Source: a virus
Lineage: Duplodnaviria; Heunggongvirae; Uroviricota; Caudoviricetes
Reading direction: 5' to 3' (one strand)
DNA length: 17,984 bases
IMG/VR virus record: IMGVR_UViG_2541047596_000007
In this document: positions 4,002 to 17,984 of the stretch, piece by piece
Numbering within the stretch: the stretch's first letter is position 1
How the letters are laid out: each line of letters begins with the position of its first letter
The notes under the pieces: generated by a model
The model's database searches: none
Told to the model about the DNA's origin: nothing
What the model saw: the letters and a program-made list of their open reading frames with translations, nothing else
Position numbers and translations under genes: made by a program

Positions 4002-4329
4002 CGTGAATGCCCCTTTCGGGAAAAGCGGCTGCCCGATGAAGCAAGCCCGCGTCGCAGCAGTGCCAGTGGTGCGCCAGCCAGCCAGGACAACGCGCTGCTG
4101 GTTCGAGTTACTGCTGCCGTAACGGAAGGTAACATTTTGATACCCAGCACAGAGAATCCCAGACGGATCACTGCCAGCGGCCCCAGCACTGCAGCCAGCG
4201 CCACCGCTAAGGTGCCGAGGCCCACGGTAACGGCAGCCACCACAGCGGCTACTTTCATCAGTGTGCCTGTCAGTTCCGGGTTAGCTTCCACCCAGCGACG
4301 CAACGCCCCTGTGACCGACGCCGCACAAA

Positions 4330-4700
4330 ACCAGGAGGATGTGAACAACCTCCGCAACGCGATGAAAAGCGCCAAAGGCCCAGGTAACTTCCGCAACCTG
4401 TTTATGTACTCGCCTAACGGCAAAAAGGACGGGCTTCAGATCATCCCGTTGTCAGAAGTCGCGGCGAAGGATGAGTTTTTGAATATCAAGAACGTGAGCC
4501 GGGATGACATGATGGCGGCGCATCGTGTGCCGCCTCAGATGATGGGGATTATGCCGAGTAATGTTGGCGGGTTTGGGGATGTGGAAAAGGCTAGTAAGGT
4601 TTTTGTAAGAAATGAAGTAATCCCCTTACAGCAAAGAATCTGTGAAATCAACCGATGGTTAAATGACGATATAATAAATTTTAAAGAATATTCGATGTAA
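4330..4700 (+). pseudogene. Phage portal protein (P2 gpQ-like), C-terminal fragment only
   Basis: The last ~120 aa of ORF 3801-4700 (FRNLFMYSPNGKKDGLQIIPLSEVAAKDEFLNIKNVSRDDMMAAHRVPPQMMGIMPSNVGGFGDVEKA) resemble the portal C-terminus. The N-terminal part of that ORF is antisense to the gpD region and not portal-like. The left boundary is approximate. Confidence 0.5.
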
Positions 4701-4732
4701 AATTAAAGAGTCTCAAATGAGACTCTTTAATT
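4701..4732. terminator. Bidirectional hairpin between portal remnant and HNH gene
   Basis: Perfect 14-bp inverted repeat AATTAAAGAGTCTC / GAGACTCTTTAATT (4701-4714 and 4719-4732) with a 4-nt loop, lying between two convergent stop codons. Confidence 0.55.
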
Positions 4733-5400
4733 TAAGGAAGCATCGTATCAAAAACATCACGCAACGCAGTAGAGAATGGTCTGGGGTCTATTTCTTTATA
4801 ATACTCGTCTCGAAGTTCGTTACGGACACTATCATCATAAAGTCCCTCTTCGATGAACTCTTCAGCTGTAGAAACAAATCTCTCTATCAATGACCATGTT
4901 TCTGATATTGCATTGATGCGCTCAGTTTTCACGCCGCCCTTTTCACCATTCAGGTTAAAAACCCTTATAGTAACCTCAGCTCTTCGCTCATCGTTTCGCG
5001 ATAACCCCGGACGAATATCCATATTTCCATTAATAGCGAAATGGAAAAAATGTGTGGGGTCATCATTATCGGCCTTGATTAGGTCTTGCTCCTGATAGCT
5101 CTGTTCATCTTTGTAAAAACCGCAGTGATTATTTTCAGCACAAGAGCCGAACAAGTTTGACCATTCAAATGTTAAATGCCTATGCTGGCTTCTACGCAAA
5201 AAATGCTCGATATGCTTATCATCACTATTGTGAATATCTATTTTCCGCTCACAATACGCACATCTCTTCCCTTGCATTTCAACTAAACCGACCCAGACTA
5301 ATTGTTTATGTCGCCGTTTAAAAGCATTCCAGTCATGAATATTGTAGTCAAACTCGGCTAAAACACCTGGACCAATGGGATTTCTAGCAAGGAATTTCAT
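4732..5400 (-). CDS. HNH endonuclease, PtuB-like retron/Septu effector
   Basis: 222 aa with an HNH signature (CAYCERKIDIHNSDDKHIEHF ... CAENNHCG). The start overlaps the upstream ATPase stop in an ATGA junction. Confidence 0.8.
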   Translation of the reverse strand: MKFLARNPIGPGVLAEFDYNIHDWNAFKRRHKQLVWVGLVEMQGKRCAYCERKIDIHNSDDKHIEHFLRRSQHRHLTFEWSNLFGSCAENNHCGFYKDEQSYQEQDLIKADNDDPTHFFHFAINGNMDIRPGLSRNDERRAEVTIRVFNLNGEKGGVKTERINAISETWSLIERFVSTAEEFIEEGLYDDSVRNELRDEYYKEIDPRPFSTALRDVFDTMLP

Positions 5401-7052
5401 TGTTTAGATTCCTTATTGCCAGACTCACCCCGCACTTTGTCTTTTAGCTTTAATACACGAATTATACCATCACACTCAAGTAATAATGGGTGATCAATTC
5501 CATAATGCTTGTCTAACTTTTTCCTTATCATTATGGCTTCCTCCGAATCCTGCTGCCTGTTTTCAATAAATTTCTTATAAGTGCTCAGCCATGCGACTTC
5601 TTTTACATTAGGTACAGGATCTGTTTTCATCCCATAAAGCAAAGCGTACGAATTCTTAGTACCTTTTGTTTGAGATGATGGTAAAAGCACACGTAATTCC
5701 TTCATGCCTGTCGAAGGGTTTTTTATTTCCTCAAGGATGCGCAAGCATTTACTTGGAACTGTCGATACAATTTGAGGGCTATGAGTGGTAATTATGAATT
5801 GTACGTTAGGAAATGTATGCTGCAATTTCTCAATAATGTTTTGCTGCCAGCTTGGGTGCAAATGAAGATCAACTTCATCAATTAATACTATACCTTTCCC
5901 TTGAAGTGGATTATTTAACTTAGGATTCAGCAACACCAAGCGTCTTGTTAAATCCCCCACTAATGTAAGTATAGTTTTCTCCCCTTGAGAGAGTTGCTGG
6001 GCATCTAATAGTAAATCATCTTTTGCTAAAACTAAACGAACTTCATTTTCAGTATATTGAAGTTCAACAGAGCTAATTTCAGGAAGGAAATTAATTATTG
6101 CCCTTTTAACATTAGCAACAATATCTTTTGAACGACTTAAACCATTTGGTGTAGACGGTAACGTATTAAGAATCAACTCTTTATTAGCAATTTGTGTTTC
6201 TATATCTATTAATGTTCTTCTATCAACATCACTGAAAGATTTCAAAACCTCCAAAGATACCTTAAGCTTTGAGATATCAATAACAAGTTGATCTCTTTGT
6301 TTTTCTGGTATCAAGGACTCCTCAGACAATGCCTTATTATTAACAAATATAAACCAATTTAAAAACTCACCGAAGTCACGGCGATCAAACTCTATATCTT
6401 CATAAGCATCAAGCTTAGTCCATCGACGCACAGAATTATTAACATTTCTTTTATTATCTATGCCTGCACCATTTGAAGATCTTGATACAGAGTAATATGC
6501 AAGAACCGGAAGGCTTACATCTTCATAATATGAATTCACAACACGAAAGAATGACGCCATCTCTTTTATAGAAAGCAACTCATTATTTCTTTTTTGTGAT
6601 ACTCCATCTTTAACACGTGTAACTAAAATATTTGACGTTATTTTTTTAAGTTTAAACTGCGCAGTTATTGCAGCATAATTGACATCATTATGATTGTTAA
6701 TATCACCATCTTTTATATGAAAACCGCTTTTATCTTCTTTTTGAACATTTGCTCTAAACCAACTTAAAGCAATAAATAATGCTTCAAGAATGGTGGTTTT
6801 ACCGTAACCATTATCACCAACAAACACTGTTAGTTTTTTGTCGATCGAAACAAAAAGATCCCTGACTCTTTTATAGTCTGAGATGGCGACTTTATTTATA
6901 AGAAATGGTGCATCTTCAATTTCCTTATATAACGAAGATACCTCTTCAGGAATGTTCTCTTTACTGAATTCTAAACCATCTTCAGTTTTATTTACATAAG
7001 ACTGCAATAATGTACGAATGTCATTTGGTGATTTAGTATACTTTGAGTTCAC
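5397..7052 (-). CDS. ABC/SMC-like ATPase, PtuA-like retron/Septu partner
   Basis: 551 aa with Walker A (GDNGYGKTT), an ABC-signature-like LSQGEK, and Walker B/H-loop (VLIDEVDLHLHP). Overlaps the RT stop and the HNH start by ATGA at both ends. Confidence 0.82.
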   Translation of the reverse strand: MNSKYTKSPNDIRTLLQSYVNKTEDGLEFSKENIPEEVSSLYKEIEDAPFLINKVAISDYKRVRDLFVSIDKKLTVFVGDNGYGKTTILEALFIALSWFRANVQKEDKSGFHIKDGDINNHNDVNYAAITAQFKLKKITSNILVTRVKDGVSQKRNNELLSIKEMASFFRVVNSYYEDVSLPVLAYYSVSRSSNGAGIDNKRNVNNSVRRWTKLDAYEDIEFDRRDFGEFLNWFIFVNNKALSEESLIPEKQRDQLVIDISKLKVSLEVLKSFSDVDRRTLIDIETQIANKELILNTLPSTPNGLSRSKDIVANVKRAIINFLPEISSVELQYTENEVRLVLAKDDLLLDAQQLSQGEKTILTLVGDLTRRLVLLNPKLNNPLQGKGIVLIDEVDLHLHPSWQQNIIEKLQHTFPNVQFIITTHSPQIVSTVPSKCLRILEEIKNPSTGMKELRVLLPSSQTKGTKNSYALLYGMKTDPVPNVKEVAWLSTYKKFIENRQQDSEEAIMIRKKLDKHYGIDHPLLLECDGIIRVLKLKDKVRGESGNKESKQ

Positions 7053-7990
7053 ATCCCCTCCTCAGAAAAAAGCGCATGTATTACTTCTTTCCCATATTTA
7101 ATTTTCATTCTAGCAATAAATTTAGGCTCTATATATAAAGCATGTCCAACAAAGCCCTTAAGGCTTATAACATCCTCTTTAGCCAGTAAGCCTAGTGTAT
7201 ATTTATGCAGCAGAGAAGAAATCATTCTCTTCTTTTGCCTACCGAGCGAAAGCTCCCCATCAACTGTTAATGTCACACCTGTCACATGTCTATTATGAGC
7301 TTTAGACGTGAATACAGTTTTAGATTCATTTAAAGATATACCTTTAGCACATAATGATAATGCAAACCTTACTACTTTCGGGACCTCAAAAAGTATATTC
7401 TTCTCATCTGTAGAAAATGTAATATCATCAGCATACCTTGAATATGAAATATTCCTAACAGAGCACCAATTGTTTATATAATTATCAAAATCATACATTA
7501 CAAAATTACTAACAAAAGGTGAGGATGGCGCCCCAACGCTCAACACGAGAGTGATACTTCTTTTTTTTCCTGGTTTCCAGAAAAGAATCCCTTCTAAAAA
7601 CTCCTTATCCTCACCTGACAAAACAACCCCTTGAGAGCGAAGTTTATCAAATAAAAGAGCCGGTTTAATTTTATTGAAGAAATTCTGAAAATCCATTTTT
7701 AAAAGATAGGAGTTTGCCATATGGATTTTGGCATTGTCCTTAATTCCTATAGAAACTTTATAAGCTTTCGCTGCATCGTGCACGATGAGCTTGGAAGCCA
7801 AAATTTTCACAACCTCACGCTGAATTCGCTTTATCTCACTCGTTGGTTGAGCAATAAGCCTGAATCCACTTTGTCGTTTAGGAATTGTGTAGACTTTATA
7901 TTTTTTAGGCGCAACACTCGATAACCGCCTCAGCTCGTTAACGTTTACTCCAAGTTCTTTGCTAACAGCCGATAAAATTTCCATAAACAT
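7049..7990 (-). CDS. Retron-type reverse transcriptase
   Basis: 313 aa with RT motifs: LKMDFQNFF (motif A), GAPSSPFVSN (motif B) and RYADDITFS (YADD catalytic motif C). Its size and the adjacent structured ncRNA fit a retron RT. Confidence 0.88.
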   Translation of the reverse strand: MFMEILSAVSKELGVNVNELRRLSSVAPKKYKVYTIPKRQSGFRLIAQPTSEIKRIQREVVKILASKLIVHDAAKAYKVSIGIKDNAKIHMANSYLLKMDFQNFFNKIKPALLFDKLRSQGVVLSGEDKEFLEGILFWKPGKKRSITLVLSVGAPSSPFVSNFVMYDFDNYINNWCSVRNISYSRYADDITFSTDEKNILFEVPKVVRFALSLCAKGISLNESKTVFTSKAHNRHVTGVTLTVDGELSLGRQKKRMISSLLHKYTLGLLAKEDVISLKGFVGHALYIEPKFIARMKIKYGKEVIHALFSEEGM

Positions 7991-8270
7991 TCCGCTTGTG
8001 AGGCCCGCTTGCGCGGGCCGAGCTCTTCACTAAAGACAGCGAAAGCGACGAATTCCGCCTTCGTAAACTATGGCAACAGCCATAGGATGCGAAGGCGGAA
8101 TTCGTCGCTTTCGCAACCCTAAACTGAGCAATAAATTAGAGCCTGGCTTATCGCCCGGCTAGAACGCAATGGTTCCCTAACGCTAAAGAGCATAGGAATA
8201 CTAATGTTGCAACGAACAAATAGCAAGCCGGGCGCGCGCTCGTATCCCCGCCACGCCTGCCCGCTTTATG
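7991..8270 (-). ncRNA. Retron msr-msd non-coding RNA (boundaries approximate)
   Basis: Non-coding GC-rich region immediately upstream of the RT on the same strand. It contains the long msd hairpin (8039-8114), a 7-bp hairpin GGCCCGC-TTGC-GCGGGCC (8002-8019) and a long-range complement CGCCCGGCT (8152-8160) / AGCCGGGCG (8226-8234). I could not identify a1/a2 by eye. Confidence 0.55.
8039..8114 (-). repeat. msd stem-loop: perfect 25-bp inverted repeat
   Basis: GCGAAAGCGACGAATTCCGCCTTCG (8039-8063) is the exact reverse complement of CGAAGGCGGAATTCGTCGCTTTCGC (8090-8114). The 26-nt loop holds an inner 6-bp palindrome CTATGG/CCATAG (8068-8073 and 8080-8085). Confidence 0.85.
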
Positions 8271-8300
8271 TAGTGGTTTTCATGCACCTGCATGATCTAC

Positions 8301-8326
8301 GCAAAAGCCCGCCAGTTCTGGCAGGC
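8301..8326 (-). terminator. Candidate rho-independent terminator after the DinI-like operon
   Basis: On the minus strand, GCCUGCCAG-AAC-CUGGCGGGC forms a 9-bp stem with one G-U pair, followed by UUUUGC. Confidence 0.35.
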
Positions 8327-8460
8327 CTTAGCAAAAACGATCCTCAAACGATCATGCGATCTCATGCGGCATAGACATGCACCACAGAGCTAACGCCTCG
8401 CACAGCTCGTTGTTCAACCTTGCTGACGCCAGAAGCAAGTTCAGACGCCAGCAGCGTTTC

Positions 8461-8694
8461 TTAATGCAGCCAGCTGTCGTCTTCCCACACCTTCTGCATA
8501 ATTTTCATCACTTGTTTTCTTTCTTCGTCCAGTTGCAGTCCGGTCAGTTCCACACCGTTAGAGCTACCTTTGCGGATACGAATTACCGTTTTGGGATACA
8601 GGGGGCGCAGATTGCGGTAAAGCTCGGATTCAAGGGCGTCCAGGATAGACTGGCTAATCTTCTGCTCTTTATCGATCATTATTTCAATGCGCAT
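8461..8694 (-). CDS. DinI-family protein (77 aa)
   Basis: Start taken at the internal Met MRIEIMIDK, preceded by GAGGTG. The pattern MRIE...DAL..EL...W.DD.W parallels E. coli DinI (MRIEVTIAK...WESADDW). Confidence 0.78.
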   Translation of the reverse strand: MRIEIMIDKEQKISQSILDALESELYRNLRPLYPKTVIRIRKGSSNGVELTGLQLDEERKQVMKIMQKVWEDDSWLH

Positions 8695-8704
8695 AAAAGT
8701 CACC

Positions 8705-8893
8705 TCAGTTGATGACATCCATTGAGCGGTTGTATTCGTGGCTTCTGATTTTTGCCATGAGTTCATCTGTCAATTCAGAAACCCACTGCAGAGCCAGCCC
8801 CTTCTCTTCATCACTACACTCACTAGCCGCTACAAGCTTAAGAAAAAAATCAATGCGCTGGAGCTTCAAAGACTCCAAAAAATAGTCCTGCAT
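8705..8893 (-). CDS. Small hypothetical protein (62 aa), first gene of LexA-box operon
   Basis: Start chosen at MQDYFLESL because of a strong SD (GGAGGAAAG then ATG) and LexA boxes just upstream. The longer 96-aa reading would place the LexA boxes inside the coding region. Confidence 0.5.
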   Translation of the reverse strand: MQDYFLESLKLQRIDFFLKLVAASECSDEEKGLALQWVSELTDELMAKIRSHEYNRSMDVIN

Positions 8894-8919
8894 CTTTCCT
8901 CCTATGACACCACAAGCAA

Positions 8920-8954
8920 TACTGTATGCATAAACACTGTTTATATTTACAGTA
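8920..8954. promoter_or_regulatory. LexA (SOS) box plus adjacent half-matching box upstream of the small-ORF/DinI-like operon
   Basis: caCTGTttatatttACAGta (8935-8954) fits CTGT-N8-ACAG with an AT-rich spacer. The overlapping CTGTatgcataaACAC (8922-8937) is a near match. Confidence 0.6.
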
Positions 8955-9046
8955 TATAATAATCTTACTGATGTAAAACGTTTTTTTACGTTCATCAGCC
9001 TGATATGCCTGGTATTATTAAGAGCACGAATTGTTAACCCGCGTAA

Positions 9047-11461
9047 TTAATACAGGTTCCGCCACTTATCATCTTCCTGCAAACGCTGGTTCCGATAGAA
9101 GATACGCAGGCCTGCTCCTGACGGAATACTGCCACCGCGAAGGAGCAAATCGACCTCTTTCTCGCTGCCATCAAATCCTCTGGACTTCAGTTCATAGACG
9201 AGCTGCTGACGCTGATGCTCTGTAATTCGCTGTTTGTAGTCTTTACGCCGTTTCGGTTTAACCAGGCGTAATCTTGCTACCAGTTCCCGGCGCTCTTTTT
9301 TGTTCATACAGTGCAGGTAATCGTGCAACTCCTTGTCATCCATGCGGGTGATATCCGTTCTGGTATCCCCATCAGCTGATTTGTCTTTCCCTTGTTGGTA
9401 CAAATTTTCAGCAAGGGGACAGTTATTGCCACGAGTCCAAGGGGCGCAAGCGCTCTGGTCGGCTACCGCCTCCTGAACGTCAACGGCCTTACGAACCATT
9501 TTCCACTTCACTGCATGAGTGCAGATCTTGCCCTCTGCAATGGGTGACCAGATGCCATAAATACGAATACCGTGATCGCCATAGGCGGTCGGCTCTTCGT
9601 TAATTTCATAAGCAGTTCTGATGAGGTGATATTTACGGGGAACCAGTACACCTCCCTGCTTCATGATATAGGTGGCAAAACAACCAGCATCAGCAGCAGC
9701 CAGAATGGCATCAAGGCGCGGGTTATCCAGTACCGGCACACCTGCTTTTTTGTCACCCTGCTGCCTTGCCGCCTGACCAGCCAGCAATCGCAGTTCACGG
9801 TAAGCCTGACGCCCCGGAATACCAAAGAAGCGGAATTGCTGAACACGATGCAAAGACGCCCAGGCATTCACGTATTCAGCGTTATCACGAAGAGATTTAC
9901 CCGTTTCCTTGCTGATCTCGCCAGCCAGACCACGCCCGTCAATGTTCTTACTGATGTATTTCGCTATGTAGCTTGTCGGCGTTCCTTTGCGCGGGTTAAT
10001 CAGCTCAGACTTAAAGCGCGGCCCCGTGTTATTGCCCAGCTCCTCGCGGTCTTCACGGATAGCAAACTTACGCAACAATGCAGTAATGGCGCGGCGGTCT
10101 TTTTTGCGCATGAAACACAACAGGTGCCAGTGAACTGTGCCGTCGTGATGCGGCTCAGCCACCCGCACGCCATACCAGCGCAACCCGGCTTTGTGCATCG
10201 CCTTACGAAATGCAGCAAACATACCGACCAGATAATCGCTGCTTTGTCTTACCGTCGCGTTTTTCCAGGTCGGATTGGGTCTGCCGTTATTGAGCGTGGA
10301 ATGGAAACGTGACGGACAGGTAATGGTGTAGAAAACGGCGCAGTCACCGCGCATTTCCGCGATAAGCTCCAGACCTTTAACACAGGCCATCATCTCATTG
10401 CGGCGATGCGCCGGGTTGCTGCAGCTGGCGTTTACCACATCTTCCATATCCAGCGCGTCTCCGTCTTCGTTCACCAGTTCATGAGAACGGAAAAACTCCA
10501 GCGACTTACGGCACTGCTCACGTTTATGCATCACAGCTTCATAGCTGACATAGGGAGATGCTTTTTTGCTGACCAGGCAGACAGCACGCAACTGCTCTTC
10601 CCGCCATTCGCAACGCATCTTCCACAATTTCCGATACCACCAGTCGGCGCACAGCATACGCGCCAGCGAGCCCGGAATGAGTTCATAGGGCACGGGTTTA
10701 CGGCGGTTTCTTTTCCGACGGAGTTGCTCAAACGCAGGCGGGATGACATCCAAACGTAGGGTTTCCGCTGCCACCTTTTCCCATGTCTTGCGGATTTCTT
10801 CTGGCTTAACATCATCGGTGGCGTACAAATCACCACAAGCGGCATCAAGACACATGCTCATATGCGCAGCGACAAGGGTAGACAGGCGTTTCACCTGATC
10901 CTGACTCATTTCAGGCAGGATCAGCAGGCCGTCCAGCCCTTCATGGCTTGCCATAAAGCGAAAAGAAGTGGATAGCTGACTGTCGCGTACATGCTCCAGT
11001 CGTTCCAGACATGGCTTAATCGTCTCACGCAAATAGCGGGAATAAGCCTTTGGCCTGCCCAGACTGCTGAAGTATTCAATACGTTGCATCAGCGGCTTGC
11101 TGATATGGGAAGGCTGGGCGTTGACGTCAGCCAGAATGACCATGTCTGGATTAAAACGCTGCTGCTCATGCGCCAGCTTTGCCCGGCTAATGAGCTTATC
11201 CTGCTCCATTTCGCGCTGGACAGGATCACGGGATTCATTAAAGAAATAACGCTCCCAGACCTGCTCACTCAGTGCCTCGCGGCGCAGTTGTTCCTGCTCG
11301 TTATCGGCAGCATACAGAGTGATCAGGTTTGAAAGTGCAGACTCCGGCGCAAATTCCGCCGGGTCCAGATAAGGGTTAATGGCCTTTTTCGGGCCGTTCC
11401 ATGAAAATGATGCAGCGGCCTCGTTAAAGCCGCTAGAGTTGCTCATATCGTCATGACTCAT
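9047..11461 (-). CDS. A: P2/186 gene A-like rolling-circle replication initiator
   Basis: 804 aa with an HUH-type metal motif ([10 protein letters not shown]) and paired tyrosines ([10 protein letters not shown]), as in the P2 A endonuclease. The start overlaps the Dam stop by ATGA. Confidence 0.88.
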
Positions 11462-14241: not shown

Positions 14242-15120
14242 ATGAATTTCAAAAACGGAGGACAGGCAGTCATAAAGCGCATGCTTGAAGCGTATGGATT
14301 CAAGACGCGGCAAGCCCTATGTGAACAGTTCAATGTATCTGCAAGTACTATGGGAACGCGCTGGATGCGTGACGCATTTCCTGCTGACTGGGTAATTCAG
14401 TGTGCAATTGAAACAGGAGCATCTATAGAGTGGCTCTCATTCGGAAAAGGCGTGCCATTTCCTAAGAATACCGAAGTTCCCGCTAAATTAGAGGAACCAG
14501 CATCATTGGTTCAATATGTTCCCAAAGCCACCACCAACGAGAACCCAATTGTGAACCATCCAAATCTGGATTCAGGTGGACGTAATGCGATAAACAGGCT
14601 AATGGAAGCGTATGGCTTTAAAACAAGACAAGAACTTGCCGACCATTTGAATGTGTCTAAAAGCACAATGGCGAATAGATACTTGCGAGACACATTCCCA
14701 GCTGACTGGATCATAAGATGCTCGTTGGAAACAAGAACTTCTCTTTTATGGTTAGCAACTGGGCGCGGGCAAAAACTTGGAAGCGAAGAAAGTGAAGCTT
14801 TAGAAATTCCTAAAGTAAAACTTATTGACAATCAAATTTTCGATGCTGGTCATTTATTGATAGATAAGTCCCTGCTTCCTCATTTTAATGATTTACTCGC
14901 AATTGAAGACGAACATTGCATAAATATTGCACACATGAATAAAGCTAATGTTGAAGACGGAAGATGGATTGTTCAATACCAAAATAATTTCAAGTTAAAA
15001 CAAATTTTTCTATTACCTGGAGGCAATCTTCGAGTAACAGACGATGATTTAACATTTGATTGTGAAAAAGAAGATATAAAATTAGTTGCCAAAATTTTCT
15101 CACAGTACCGTACTATTTAA
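14242..15120 (+). CDS. CI-like repressor with tandemly duplicated N-terminal CI-type HTH domains
   Basis: 292 aa. Residues ~5-70 (RMLEAYGFKTRQALCEQFNVSASTMGTRWMRDAFPADWVIQCAIETGASIEWL) and ~111-176 (RLMEAYGFKTRQELADHLNVSKSTMANRYLRDTFPADWIIRCSLETRTSLLWL) are homologous copies of the phage CI-repressor HTH fold, followed by a distinct ~115-aa C-terminal domain. Confidence 0.72.
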   Translation: MNFKNGGQAVIKRMLEAYGFKTRQALCEQFNVSASTMGTRWMRDAFPADWVIQCAIETGASIEWLSFGKGVPFPKNTEVPAKLEEPASLVQYVPKATTNENPIVNHPNLDSGGRNAINRLMEAYGFKTRQELADHLNVSKSTMANRYLRDTFPADWIIRCSLETRTSLLWLATGRGQKLGSEESEALEIPKVKLIDNQIFDAGHLLIDKSLLPHFNDLLAIEDEHCINIAHMNKANVEDGRWIVQYQNNFKLKQIFLLPGGNLRVTDDDLTFDCEKEDIKLVAKIFSQYRTI

Positions 15121-15135
15121 TCTTGAGGCATAGTA

Positions 15136-16164
15136 ATGGATTTTATAAAAAAACTCGAATTTGGAAATTATACTCTCCGTTTTGGTGATGATGTTTTGCT
15201 AGACTATTATGATGAAATTGTTTTCCCCTCTTTTTTGGAGATGGCAAACATCCGCAGAATATCTGACAAATCAGAGTTCTTTTTCATTGATACTGAATGC
15301 GTCATACTTGACGAAGAAGCAACACCCCCAGTACTCGGAATTAAAGGTCGGATTATTAAGAATACATTATTAACCAGAGAACAAGTATTTGATGGTGCTG
15401 ATTTGGTTGAAGATCATAAAGAGCTTGAAACAGCCCCGAGCTCTTTCTTTCTTCTAATATTAAACACTCACAGATTAATTCTTTGCAAGGAAGTTAGTGG
15501 TGCTCCCACAATTCAAAACTTTCAGTCAACAAGTCAGTGTTTCTTAAACATAGAATATGAAAAATACATATCTCATTTATACGAAACCGCACAAGAAGAA
15601 CGCAAAGAAAACCCTGACTTACCTCGAGTCACTAAAAAAAGCTTACGGAACGAAATCAAACGCCCGAAGCTAAGAATAACGCCGTTAACTGACAAACAAA
15701 GCCTAGAGCAATTTATTGATAATTTTAATAAAATCCAAAATGTCTCAGTAAAACTTCTCCCTACAAATCAAGAAGAAATTGATAACGACGAATTTTGGGA
15801 GTCGCTTGAAAGTGCCGGAGACGAAATGGGAAGTATTTCTACATCTATTCGCTTTTCAAACACCGATTCAGGCTTGAATCATGGTGCTGTTTTAGAACAA
15901 CTCACATCAGCAACCAGATTGGCTAATTCAGGAATAAATATTAAAGGATATGATGACAATGGTGATATAATCAAAGGTAGCAATGATGACTTTGTTTTGT
16001 TAAGTGAGATGAATGAATTATCAAAGGATACGGTAGTAGCTGCAAATGAAAGTTATGAGCGGTATGAAAATCTTGTAGAAGAAGGTAAGATATCTCTACC
16101 CCGTTCTCTTTCACAAAAGACGATTAGAATTATTAGCAATATATATGAAAGGTTTGGTCGATGA
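15136..16164 (+). CDS. Hypothetical soluble protein, unrecognised family (candidate exclusion/defence component A)
   Basis: 342-aa ORF 15 nt downstream of the cI stop, with GAGG about 8 nt upstream of the ATG. Visibly AT-rich compared with the phage core. No catalytic or NTP-binding motif recognised; two domains separated by a charged linker. Confidence 0.7.
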   Translation: MDFIKKLEFGNYTLRFGDDVLLDYYDEIVFPSFLEMANIRRISDKSEFFFIDTECVILDEEATPPVLGIKGRIIKNTLLTREQVFDGADLVEDHKELETAPSSFFLLILNTHRLILCKEVSGAPTIQNFQSTSQCFLNIEYEKYISHLYETAQEERKENPDLPRVTKKSLRNEIKRPKLRITPLTDKQSLEQFIDNFNKIQNVSVKLLPTNQEEIDNDEFWESLESAGDEMGSISTSIRFSNTDSGLNHGAVLEQLTSATRLANSGINIKGYDDNGDIIKGSNDDFVLLSEMNELSKDTVVAANESYERYENLVEEGKISLPRSLSQKTIRIISNIYERFGR

Positions 16165-16841
16165 TAAATAAAATAGATGCTAAAGAAATAACCAAAGAGA
16201 AAAACCTTTGGGATGTTTACTTGCTCTGCAAACGGATTACTATTAGTACATTCCATATTTGCATTTTGCTCACAGCATCTATTTTTTTATTAACAAACTC
16301 TTTTTTTATTGAGAAGGATATGTCTCATTTAGTATCTGACATTAGAAACTGGGCTTTGATTGGTTTTAACTTTGCAGTGACAACCTTAGGTTTTCTCATT
16401 GCTGGTTTCACAATATTTGCAACACTATCCAAACCCGAGATGTTTCTTCAGATGATGTCAATACAACATAAAAAAACACAGATGCCCACGTTAAAATATA
16501 ACTTTATGGCATTTATGAAAGTTTTCATCTCATTTATTACGTTTACTTTCATTTATCTAATAATAATTCTCTTTTGTCAAAAAGATGGAATAATTGGTAA
16601 TATAATTGATTTATTTCCATATTCAAAATCGATAAAAGAATTAATTATTAAATTTGGATACTGTGTTATAGGGACTAGCCTTATTTACTTAGTGTTAGTA
16701 GTAAAGACATTTATTTTTAATATCTACGCTATCATAATGAATAATATTCGTTGGGAGTTATACATTAAAAGAAAAGAACAAAGACTTTCCAGTAACAAAG
16801 AGACAATCAATAAAAACATAGATGTAACTAAAATGCATTAA
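16161..16841 (+). CDS. Hypothetical four-TM membrane protein (candidate exclusion/defence component B)
   Basis: 226 aa whose start overlaps the upstream stop by ATGA. Four hydrophobic segments of about 23-30 residues (approx. aa 26-50, 64-89, 115-139, 162-194). Very AT-rich. Confidence 0.7.
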   Translation: MINKIDAKEITKEKNLWDVYLLCKRITISTFHICILLTASIFLLTNSFFIEKDMSHLVSDIRNWALIGFNFAVTTLGFLIAGFTIFATLSKPEMFLQMMSIQHKKTQMPTLKYNFMAFMKVFISFITFTFIYLIIILFCQKDGIIGNIIDLFPYSKSIKELIIKFGYCVIGTSLIYLVLVVKTFIFNIYAIIMNNIRWELYIKRKEQRLSSNKETINKNIDVTKMH

Positions 16842-16878
16842 ACACATAACATATGTATAGTTATCCAATCATCATACA

Positions 16879-16907
16879 TTGACACTGTATAAAAAAACAG
16901 TATAAAT
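16879..16907 (+). promoter_or_regulatory. Sigma70-like promoter with embedded LexA box upstream of int
   Basis: TTGACA (16879-16884), 16-bp spacer, TATAAA (16901-16906). The spacer contains caCTGTataaaaaaACAGta (16883-16902), a CTGT-N8-ACAG LexA box. GGAGGG (16918-16923) precedes the int ATG. Confidence 0.5.
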
Positions 16908-16931
16908 ACTCTCCACTGGAGGGCATTTTTT

Positions 16932-17984
16932 ATGGCAGTACGAAAACTCACCACAGGAAAATGGCTTTGCGAATGTTACCCCGCCGGACGTAGTGGACGT
17001 CGTGTGCGTAAACAATTCGCCACCAAAGGCGAAGCACTGGCTTTTGAGCGTCACACGATGGAAGAAACCGAAGCAAAGCCCTGGCTAGGTGAATCAGTGG
17101 ATCGTCGAACACTGAAAGACGTGGTTGAGCTATGGTTCAAACTACATGGTAAATCACTGACAGCTGGGCAGCATGTCTATGACAAATTGCTGCTGATGGT
17201 TGACGCTCTGGGCAATCCCCTTGCAACCGATCTAACCTCTAAAATGTTTGCCCACTATCGAGATAAACGCCTGACAGGTGAGATCTACTTCAGCGAGAAA
17301 TGGAAGAAAGGAGCAAGCCCGGTCACCATTAACCTGGAGCAAAGCTATCTAAGTAGTGTTTTTAGCGAACTATCCCGCCTGGGCGAATGGTCGTATCCGA
17401 ACCCACTGGAGAACATGCGAAAATTCACCATCGCAGAAAAAGAGATGGCATGGCTTACCCATGAGCAGATTGTTGAATTACTGGCTGATTGCAAACGTCA
17501 TGACCCAATTCTGGCACTGGTAGTTAAGATATGCTTAAGCACAGGCGCACGCTGGCGAGAAGCCGTAAATCTTACTCGTTCACAGGTGACCAAATACCGA
17601 ATTACCTTTGTAAGAACGAAGGGGAAGAAAAACAGAAGCATCCCTATCAGTAAAGAGCTTTACGAAGAGATCATGGCGCTTGATGGGTTCAATTTCTTCA
17701 CAGACTGCTATTTTCAATTTTTATCCGTGATGGAAAAAACGTCTATCGTCCTCCCTCGCGGTCAACTGACACACGTTCTGCGCCATACGTTTGCGGCGCA
17801 TTTCATGATGTCGGGTGGAAATATCCTTGCTTTGCAAAAAATCCTCGGACATCACGATATAAAAATGACTATGCGTTACGCTCATCTGGCACCGGATCAT
17901 CTGGAAACGGCGCTCCGTTTCAACCCTCTGGCAACGCTGCCAAGTGGCGACAAAGTGGCGGCAGCGGTTGGCATTACCCCGTAA
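16932..17984 (+). CDS. int: P2/186-type tyrosine integrase
   Basis: 350 aa with the tyrosine-recombinase catalytic pattern: R in STGARWREA, HxxR in HVLRHTFAAHF, and the tyrosine in MRYAHL. The N-terminus resembles P2 Int (MAVRKL vs MAIKKL). The stop codon is the last triplet of the window. Confidence 0.9.
   Translation: MAVRKLTTGKWLCECYPAGRSGRRVRKQFATKGEALAFERHTMEETEAKPWLGESVDRRTLKDVVELWFKLHGKSLTAGQHVYDKLLLMVDALGNPLATDLTSKMFAHYRDKRLTGEIYFSEKWKKGASPVTINLEQSYLSSVFSELSRLGEWSYPNPLENMRKFTIAEKEMAWLTHEQIVELLADCKRHDPILALVVKICLSTGARWREAVNLTRSQVTKYRITFVRTKGKKNRSIPISKELYEEIMALDGFNFFTDCYFQFLSVMEKTSIVLPRGQLTHVLRHTFAAHFMMSGGNILALQKILGHHDIKMTMRYAHLAPDHLETALRFNPLATLPSGDKVAAAVGITP

Follow-up and report, generated by a model that had tools for sequence, protein, structure and literature searches.

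Two adjacent genes in the 17,984-nucleotide (nt) viral sequence IMGVR_UViG_2541047596_000007, which we call the window when we mean the whole stretch, probably encode an abortive-infection or growth-arrest system of the RexAB type in a prophage defence hotspot. The genes are two open reading frames, ORF-A and ORF-B (A and B for short), located between the repressor gene cI and the integrase gene int of a decayed 186-like Escherichia coli prophage. We favour this reading because of the RexA fold predicted for ORF-A, its four-transmembrane (4-TM) partner, the obligate pairing of the two genes, their cI-linked order, the hotspot in which they sit, the defence genes next to their relatives and their mobility. 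RexAB was the first abortive-infection system to be discovered, about 70 years ago. The original prediction, made from the letters of the sequence, had proposed a RexAB-like arrangement at this locus, and the predicted fold of ORF-A, the topology of ORF-B (4-TM, with both termini inside) and the linkage to cI all support it.

Two genes behind the repressor

Four genes follow one another on the + strand of the window. The first is cI (14242-15120; 292 amino acids, aa), named 'phage repressor protein CI' in RefSeq and the first gene of the lysogenic operon, with Pfam matches to PF07022 (Phage_CI_repr; expect value, E, 1.7e-59, in two stretches) and to PF16452 (Phage_CI_C; E 2.2e-16). ORF-A (15136-16164, 342 aa) encodes a soluble, acidic protein (isoelectric point, pI, 4.7) with a predicted RexA fold, which we presume to be the infection sensor or activator, and ORF-B (16161-16841, 226 aa) encodes a basic (pI 9.5) 4-TM inner-membrane protein, the presumed membrane effector. 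The array ends with int (16932-17984), which encodes a 350-aa tyrosine integrase (Pfam Int_N, E 3.2e-32; Phage_integrase, E 7.2e-22). The coordinates, lengths and placement of the two ORFs between cI and int had been given correctly in the original prediction, as had the 15-nt gap after the cI stop codon, the ATGA joint between the ORFs and the strand that they share with cI.

The spacer between cI and ORF-A (15121-15135, + strand) has the sequence TCTTGAGGCATAGTA and includes a GAGG ribosome-binding site, with this Shine-Dalgarno sequence located 9 nt 5' of the ORF-A ATG. The stop codon of ORF-A and the start codon of ORF-B share the ATGA overlap, by which ORF-B is presumed to be translationally coupled to ORF-A. 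A scan for consensus promoters and terminators predicted no + strand terminator within 14242-16191 and found no convincing promoter between cI and ORF-A. A promoter belonging to the pair itself is unsupported, as there were 8 promoter-like sites compared with 11.2 in shuffled sequences. Given the shared strand, the 15-nt gap with its ribosome-binding site and the lack of a predicted terminator, we infer that A and B are expressed together with cI in the lysogen. The G+C fraction is 0.354 in ORF-A and 0.278 in ORF-B, against 0.482 in int and 0.448 in the whole window.

Both ORFs are annotated as hypothetical proteins in RefSeq, in 13 of 5426 complete E. coli genomes, where the carrier is a 186-like prophage integrated next to rcdA. 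In a collection of 5.8 billion proteins, ORF-A has 167 homologous clusters at 90% identity and ORF-B has 280. An exhaustive search of 1.84 billion representatives at 50% identity with the ORF-A profile returned 692 at E<=1e-3, 355 of them at E<=1e-30, and among the best 150 matches nearly all were full length, at about 325-350 aa. Because of the homologous clusters, the profile representatives and the RefSeq annotation, we conclude that ORF-A and ORF-B are real genes and not chance ORFs.

Fold of ORF-A and topology of ORF-B

For ORF-A, AlphaFold2 produced a confident model from an alignment of 42 sequences (predicted local distance difference test score, pLDDT, 84; predicted template-modelling score, pTM, 0.82). 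Foldseek comparison of this model with 350,542 PDB chains gave only two significant matches, both to the lambda RexA crystal structure 8TWQ (chain B, E 1.8e-6; chain A, E 2.1e-5; probability 1.00) and both aligned over the whole length; the next match had an E of 0.065. Lambda RexA is therefore the best and the only significant hit in the structural search that had been suggested for this protein. The global template-modelling score (TM-score) between ORF-A and 8TWQ is low, at 0.31-0.36. A low score fits a protein such as RexA, which is described as having two domains with a flexible hinge and swivel loops, and the similarity between ORF-A and RexA is therefore at the level of domains. RdgC and two kinetochore proteins, CENP-N and Iml3, have the RexA-type fold as well. 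On the strength of the model we assign ORF-A to the RexA/RdgC-like two-domain fold, and because all sequence-level tests were negative, what we claim is membership of a fold and not homology.

Those tests were extensive. Neither ORF-A nor ORF-B gave any meaningful match at E<=1 in PADLOC-DB 2.0, Pfam-A, PHROGs or NCBIfam, and PADLOC annotation thus assigned the two proteins to no known defence family. As controls, lambda RexA scored 1e-97 in Pfam and 9e-110 in PADLOC, and lambda RexB scored 8.5e-92 and 8.6e-61, respectively. Since the controls were detected and ORF-A and ORF-B were not, the pair are not sequence-detectable members of the RexA and RexB families. The lambda RexA family (PF15969 and PADLOC RexA) had no match to ORF-A at E<=1. 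Comparison of profiles with hhalign gave a probability of 1.3% for the 42-sequence ORF-A profile against RexA and 2.1% against a 27-member RexA family; with an 83-sequence ORF-A profile, the probability against the 27-member family was 1.7%. Searching all PDB sequences with hmmsearch, using either the 42- or the 83-sequence profile, did not find 8TWQ. An alignment of the C-terminal parts (about 238-314 in A and about 187-262 in RexA) recurred in these comparisons, with a probability of at most 2.1% (<=2.1%), and we do not count it as evidence. The hidden Markov model (HMM) and hhalign results bear out the caution with which the analogy was first put forward, namely that no sequence homology to RexA or RexB could be asserted.

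We also considered two neighbouring families. RdgC (PF04381) gave no HMM match to ORF-A and was not its best structural neighbour. DUF4747 (PF15931) had no Pfam match in the window's ORF-A, and sub-threshold matches appeared in 3 of 42 and in 3 of 83 members of the ORF-A family, the best with E 1.7e-4 and 21.5 bits against a gathering score of 27. We reject membership of the family in DUF4747, since these matches are too weak and all lie below the Pfam threshold.

Across 83 family sequences at 27-52% identity, the invariant polar residues of ORF-A (window numbering) are H112, in the motif LILNNHRL, and N211, in TNxEE, and the near-invariant ones include R40, Q83, E119 and D23. Because we know of no catalytic role for RexA-like proteins, this set may mark a site that binds a ligand or a partner.

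The four hydrophobic helices expected in ORF-B correspond to four segments, at about 31-53, 66-88, 113-138 and 163-193, with Kyte-Doolittle maxima of 1.98-2.73; ORF-A has none (maximum 1.16). The successive loops of ORF-B contain 6, 1, 4, 3 and 8 lysine plus arginine residues, which by the positive-inside rule places both termini in the cytoplasm, and the topology check that had been proposed for this protein thus gives 4-TM with N-in and C-in. The AlphaFold2 model of ORF-B, likewise confident (pLDDT 83), has long helices at 30-50, 54-89, 110-138 and 155-225. In the second transmembrane helix (TM2), the motif GFNFxxTTLGFLIAGFTIFATL is nearly invariant across the ORF-B family.

ORF-B resembles RexB, Sbash gp31 and RexBpp (both described below) in topology only, with 4-TM and both termini inside. 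It is longer than RexB, at 226 aa (about 203 aa in most of the family) versus 144 aa. RexB (PF15968 and PADLOC RexB) had no match to ORF-B at E<=1, and hhalign of the ORF-B profile against RexB gave a probability of 0.5%. A Foldseek search with ORF-B against the BFVD viral structures had a best E of 0.72 and no match to RexB, whose presence in BFVD is uncertain. With both hhalign and the BFVD search negative, ORF-B has no detectable homology to RexB.

Pairing, spread and the exchangeable cassette

The two genes travel together. In 23 of 24 loci, a complete ORF-A has an intact ORF-B homolog 3' of it in the same orientation, the junction measuring -14 to +5 nt; in the remaining locus, from Dickeya, B is truncated. 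A and B are an obligate coupled pair. The ORF-A family spans Gamma- and Betaproteobacteria, while canonical RexA forms 36 clusters at 90% identity, all of them in Enterobacterales. The ORF-B family includes a Nitrosomonas member and an 89%-identical Salmonella cluster with members on 578 and 222 contigs. A scan of genome contigs with the ORF-A profile, which used narrow peptide patterns, yielded 12 loci.

Kosakonia and Serratia have 186-like prophages with the pair in the same cI-A-B-int slot, where A is 80% and 59% identical, respectively. The record of Klebsiella phage 4LV2017 (KY271398) lists a 'hypothetical protein' in the cI-int interval that is an A with 42% identity to that of the window, and despite this divergence the integrase genes of 4LV2017 and the window are 98% identical at the DNA level. 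We noted that the 4LV2017 record leaves a gap of ~770 nt before int that encodes an unannotated 201-aa homolog of B (L002:4368-4973, given here as contig handle and positions; hmmsearch E 1.2e-69). A Dickeya prophage remnant next to smpB (L024 and L025, about 7419-9685) consists of a C-terminal fragment of CI followed by A and B, without an integrase, and B is truncated in one strain. This suggests that the pair is retained once the rest of the phage decays.

Other copies are found in different surroundings. The Vibrio harveyi pair adjoins a complete Druantia system and an AlpA gene, and the Cobetia pair is located between a Druantia-like methylase/helicase and GmrSD. Small stand-alone insertions of the pair occur in Pseudomonas, Pseudoalteromonas, Shewanella, V. 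quintilis and Plesiomonas, with the V. quintilis copy next to a HEPN/nucleotidyltransferase gene and the Plesiomonas copy at the edge of a lambdoid prophage.

To survey the slot, we used PADLOC and Pfam to classify the cI-int content of 80 IMG/VR contigs selected for an integrase with 99-100% identity to that of the window. The slot is empty of cargo, with only a 63-aa ORF, in 41 of the 80 contigs, and the cargo varies elsewhere: PD-Lambda-1 in 13, nucleoside triphosphatases of the KAP family (PADLOC PDC-S20) in seven, a pair of the 4LV2017 type (the 42%-identical variant, A'-B') in five, Old in three, PDC-M18A plus a 176-aa protein in two, the window's own A-B pair in two, PDC-M11A in one and an AriA/OLD-like ATPase in one. 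The five remaining slots hold proteins without a PADLOC match (and without a Pfam match where scanned). In 186-like prophages, the slot between cI and int is a hotspot rich in defence genes. A hotspot in this position has been noted in K139-like phages of Vibrio (Rousset 2022, PMC9122126), and 8% of P2 defence systems have been placed 'between integrase and primase' (NAR 2026, PMC13586616); the main texts of these two papers name no RexAB, CarolAnn or Rex-like occupant. The window shares with the P2-like prophage hotspots a variable slot that holds alternative defence systems between conserved phage genes. Unlike in those published hotspots, the exchanged unit here takes in the C-terminal domain of cI.

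This unit is a cassette of 2,110 nt on the + strand (14763-16872) that comprises the cI C-terminal domain, ORF-A and ORF-B. In a blastn comparison with E. coli STEC005, which has a related cI N-terminus and different cargo, homology stops at 14762 and restarts at 16873; compared with a prophage without cargo, it restarts at 16872. The breakpoints are therefore in the linker before the CI C-terminal domain (14762/14763) and 59 nt upstream of int (16872/16873), and from the latter point onward the window is 96-98% identical to prophages with other cargo or none. The complete cI allele is confined to the same 13 E. coli genomes as A and B, and 18 further E. coli genomes have only the first ~521 nt of cI in common with it (86-87% identity), with PDC-M18A as their cargo. 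The boundaries look like breakpoints of homologous recombination. Insertion by a transposon or at an att-like site was considered and rejected, as the repeats around the cassette are short matches at chance level only.

The idea that the two ORFs are an AT-rich acquired block holds for their low G+C content but needs a new left edge, at about 14763 within cI instead of at the cI stop codon. The C-terminal part of cI has a G+C fraction of 0.30, and the drop falls inside cI because the exchanged unit includes the CI C-terminal domain. The contrast originally drawn with the phage core also needs qualification, since the core here is a decayed remnant without capsid, terminase, tail or lysis genes.

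Several further observations concern the slot and its edges. In this prophage, CI has two tandem Phage_CI_repr helix-turn-helix domains (residues about 1-100 and 101-185) ahead of its C-terminal domain, and the sister prophages include both ordinary CI alleles of ~190 aa and, repeatedly, long ones of 292-318 aa. The 63-aa ORF kept in the 'empty' slots is conserved and is called 'YdcA family protein' in RefSeq (L033:5621-5812 and equivalents; L110:27400-27591). Outside the cassette, a near-consensus promoter-like element, TTGACA-N16-TATAAA, can be read in the sequence at 16879-16906 (+ strand), and a hairpin plus T-run at 16909-16923 (+ strand), listed as a hairpin by the terminator scan, overlaps the int ribosome-binding site. 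These elements (16879-16923 together) adjoin the right boundary of the cassette and are conserved among all sister prophages, and they may give int regulated expression that is independent of the cargo. Among the slots with unmatched cargo, we noted a 488-aa protein (L050:4445-5911) and a 324/325-aa occupant (L057:4945-5919), of which the former and the 324-aa protein have no PADLOC or Pfam match, a 260+356-aa occupant with no match in a Pfam scan (L098:3718-5573) and a 354-aa protein with no match in a PADLOC scan (L087:3408-4472). A 355-aa ORF is located in the cI-int slot of another contig (L100:4094-5161). The unmatched occupants are candidate uncharacterised defence genes.

The rest of the window is what remains of the prophage. 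On the attachment side, with host ybjL, is the gene for the small RNA RybB (2700-2778; Rfam, 105 bits), after which come ogr, a gpD fragment that is homologous only as far as 4034, a unique stretch of 277 nt and just the final ~390 nt of the portal gene (4312-4700). This left side of the window is common only to E. coli M37H, in which the cI-int slot is empty. The primase-portal hotspot (4732-8191, - strand) contains a retron of type I-A (Ec78/St85 family) that is complete and lies entirely on the - strand, with an msr RNA at 8123-8191 (Rfam RF00170, 55 bits), a reverse transcriptase at 7049-7990 (PADLOC RT_I-A, 3e-131), a PtuA-like ATPase at 5397-7052 and a PtuB-like HNH protein at 4732-5400. 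The remnant retains genes for replication, immunity and integration together with two defence loci.

Proposed action and relation to known Rex-like systems

If the pair acts as a RexAB-type system, the lysogen would express A and B from the transcript of the repressor gene. ORF-A, in the cytoplasm and probably as a dimer, would sense an infecting phage through a phage protein or a protein-DNA intermediate, and once triggered it would activate ORF-B. ORF-B would then oligomerise into a channel or pore in the inner membrane, which would depolarise or permeabilise the membrane, so that ATP would fall and the infection would abort. The sensor-effector logic, the membrane damage and the co-expression with cI are taken from the characterised analogues lambda RexAB, Sbash gp30/31, CarolAnn gp44/43, RexABpp and Sucellos. 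The pair is kept in decayed prophages, both in the window and in Dickeya. Among the points that weigh against this scheme are these: no sequence homology is detectable between ORF-A and RexA, and ORF-A is acidic, with a pI of 4.7 versus 8.6 for RexA. This acidic pI argues for caution in supposing that ORF-A would bind DNA non-specifically as a homodimer in the manner of RexA.

A more far-reaching proposal, which we consider unlikely, is that A and B are a RexAB-like lineage of their own, much the largest in Proteobacteria and unrelated in sequence to the validated Rex-like systems including Sucellos. In this proposal A would also contact CI, hence the single cassette with the CI oligomerisation domain, and anti-phage suicide would be linked to the lysis-lysogeny switch of a non-lambdoid phage.

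It is clearly improbable that the roles are reversed, with the RexA-fold protein A as the toxic or antiviral effector and B restraining it until infection. There is a precedent in mycobacteriophage Butters gp30/gp31, where, as summarised in PMC12894663, defence does not need the membrane protein and the effector is the RexA-like one. The sequence does not fix which partner is the effector, and A has the invariant polar residues H112 and N211. However, B is the more conserved partner, and its near-invariant TM2 is glycine-rich, as is typical of a packed or pore-lining helix. No catalytic domain is recognisable in A, and the membrane protein is the effector in 4 of 5 described Rex-like systems (PMC12894663) and in Sucellos.

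Superinfection exclusion without cell death is very improbable. In this case B would block DNA entry or an early step at the inner membrane, with A as an accessory or regulator, and the 4-TM topology of B would be compatible with such a role. Superinfection exclusion proteins are normally encoded by single genes, though, and B has an obligately coupled partner, a 342-aa protein with the RexA fold. Copies of the pair are also found in defence islands outside prophages, next to abortive-infection and nuclease systems.

We give little credence to the idea that the main role of A is to modulate the 186-type CI/Apl switch, possibly by way of the CI C-terminal domain, with defence as a side role or no role at all. 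Some support comes from the published role of lambda RexA, which tips the bistable switch towards the lytic state without needing RexB (PMC11077077). The exchanged cassette is made up of the CI C-terminal domain plus A and B, with its breakpoint in the cI linker, and a fragment encoding that domain is kept upstream of A and B in the Dickeya remnant. Identity of the CI C-terminal domain to that of the window is also higher in the carriers of the closest A (43% in Kosakonia and 35% in Serratia) than in non-carriers (28-29%). The correlation fails for 4LV2017 (26%) and Dickeya (28%), so co-evolution of the CI C-terminal domain with A is borne out only in part, and we attribute the pattern to simple linkage. 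Most family members have no adjacent repressor (in Vibrio, Cobetia, Pseudomonas, Pseudoalteromonas and Shewanella), the pair persists in remnants that can no longer grow lytically, and an obligate partner B also speaks against a switch role for A.

Equally hard to credit is that the fold reflects convergence or a distant RdgC-like protein of DNA metabolism, with the pair as non-defence cargo for membrane-associated DNA handling or a stress response, given that RexA ranks above all other PDB entries by both methods and is the sole significant Foldseek match, that the membrane partner, the repressor linkage and the defence-filled hotspot converge on defence, and that the patchy, mobile, AT-rich distribution is typical of defence cargo.

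The RexAB-type reading is useful for annotation and for the dissection of Rex mechanisms, and it would not surprise a specialist. The RexA-fold family is large, diverse and unannotated, having been missed by Pfam, PHROGs, NCBIfam and PADLOC 2023, and it would fill in 'hypothetical protein' calls in thousands of genomes. Its members are found in defence islands as well as in prophages of E. coli and Salmonella. The family offers many natural variants in tractable hosts for mapping triggers, contacts between A and B and pore-forming residues, an example being the 42%-identical allele of 4LV2017 with its 98%-identical integrase gene. The cassettes of the cI-int slot include part of the repressor gene, and several slot occupants match nothing known.

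Five Rex-like systems had been described by the count of January 2026 (PMC12894663). The pair in the window is RexAB-type, is unannotated in RefSeq and is invisible to the four libraries searched. The CarolAnn gp44/gp43 and Sbash gp30/gp31 pairs resemble A and B in combining a soluble protein, of ~370 aa in their case, with a 4-TM protein, and the CarolAnn pair (gene order 45-44-43) is co-transcribed with the immunity repressor. Both are experimentally shown defences triggered by specific phage proteins, and their hosts are Actinobacteria. Using HHpred, the Hatfull laboratory reported the DUF4747 motif in lambda RexA as well as in the RexA-like members of the Sbash and CarolAnn pairs (PMC6426596, PMC6426606). 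No homology to the CarolAnn proteins was found, with hhalign giving probabilities of 0.12% for ORF-A against gp44 and 0.05% for ORF-B against gp43; a tblastn search with CarolAnn gp44 found actinophages only.

In RexABpp of Pseudomonas putida prophage P1 (PP_5643/PP_5644; PMC12894663), RexBpp is a 4-TM protein with its termini inside, like ORF-B. RexApp reaches RexA by HHpred (98%), whereas for the ORF-A family RexA was not detected by hhalign, and two extra genes separate RexABpp from its repressor, whereas A directly follows cI here. Termini of RexApp and RexBpp derived from primers match none of the 425 proteins that we compared, and DNA tags derived from the RexABpp primers are absent from the viral and metagenome contigs.

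Sucellos (SclA/SclB, probably VCA0367-VCA0368), from the V. cholerae superintegron, is structurally RexAB-like and is not matched by the Pfam Rex models; both of its genes are required, SclB is a predicted membrane pore and infected cells die, and homologues are reported in Vibrio and 'often in Salmonella' prophages (bioRxiv 10.1101/2024.07.02.601686). It has since been called in a Nitrosospira phage. The resemblance to A and B is one of description only, in that both have two genes and a RexAB-like structure, and the A-B family is abundant in Vibrio and Salmonella. Sucellos is located in an integron cassette with its own promoter, whereas A and B follow cI in a prophage, and no V. cholerae name appears among the 20 family clusters inspected. 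In our judgement, formed by comparing descriptions and not by a test, the chance that the A-B family is Sucellos is about even, or perhaps somewhat better.

Lambda RexA/RexB (PF15969/PF15968; 8TWQ) has the same gene order, cI-rexA-rexB. Lambda RexA is a basic protein of 279 aa, while ORF-A is acidic and has 342 aa, and lambda RexAB is carried by a lambdoid phage while the host phage here is P2/186-like. Finally, compared with the 36 clusters of canonical RexA, the ORF-A family, with its 692 representatives, reaches well beyond Enterobacterales and is often found outside prophages.

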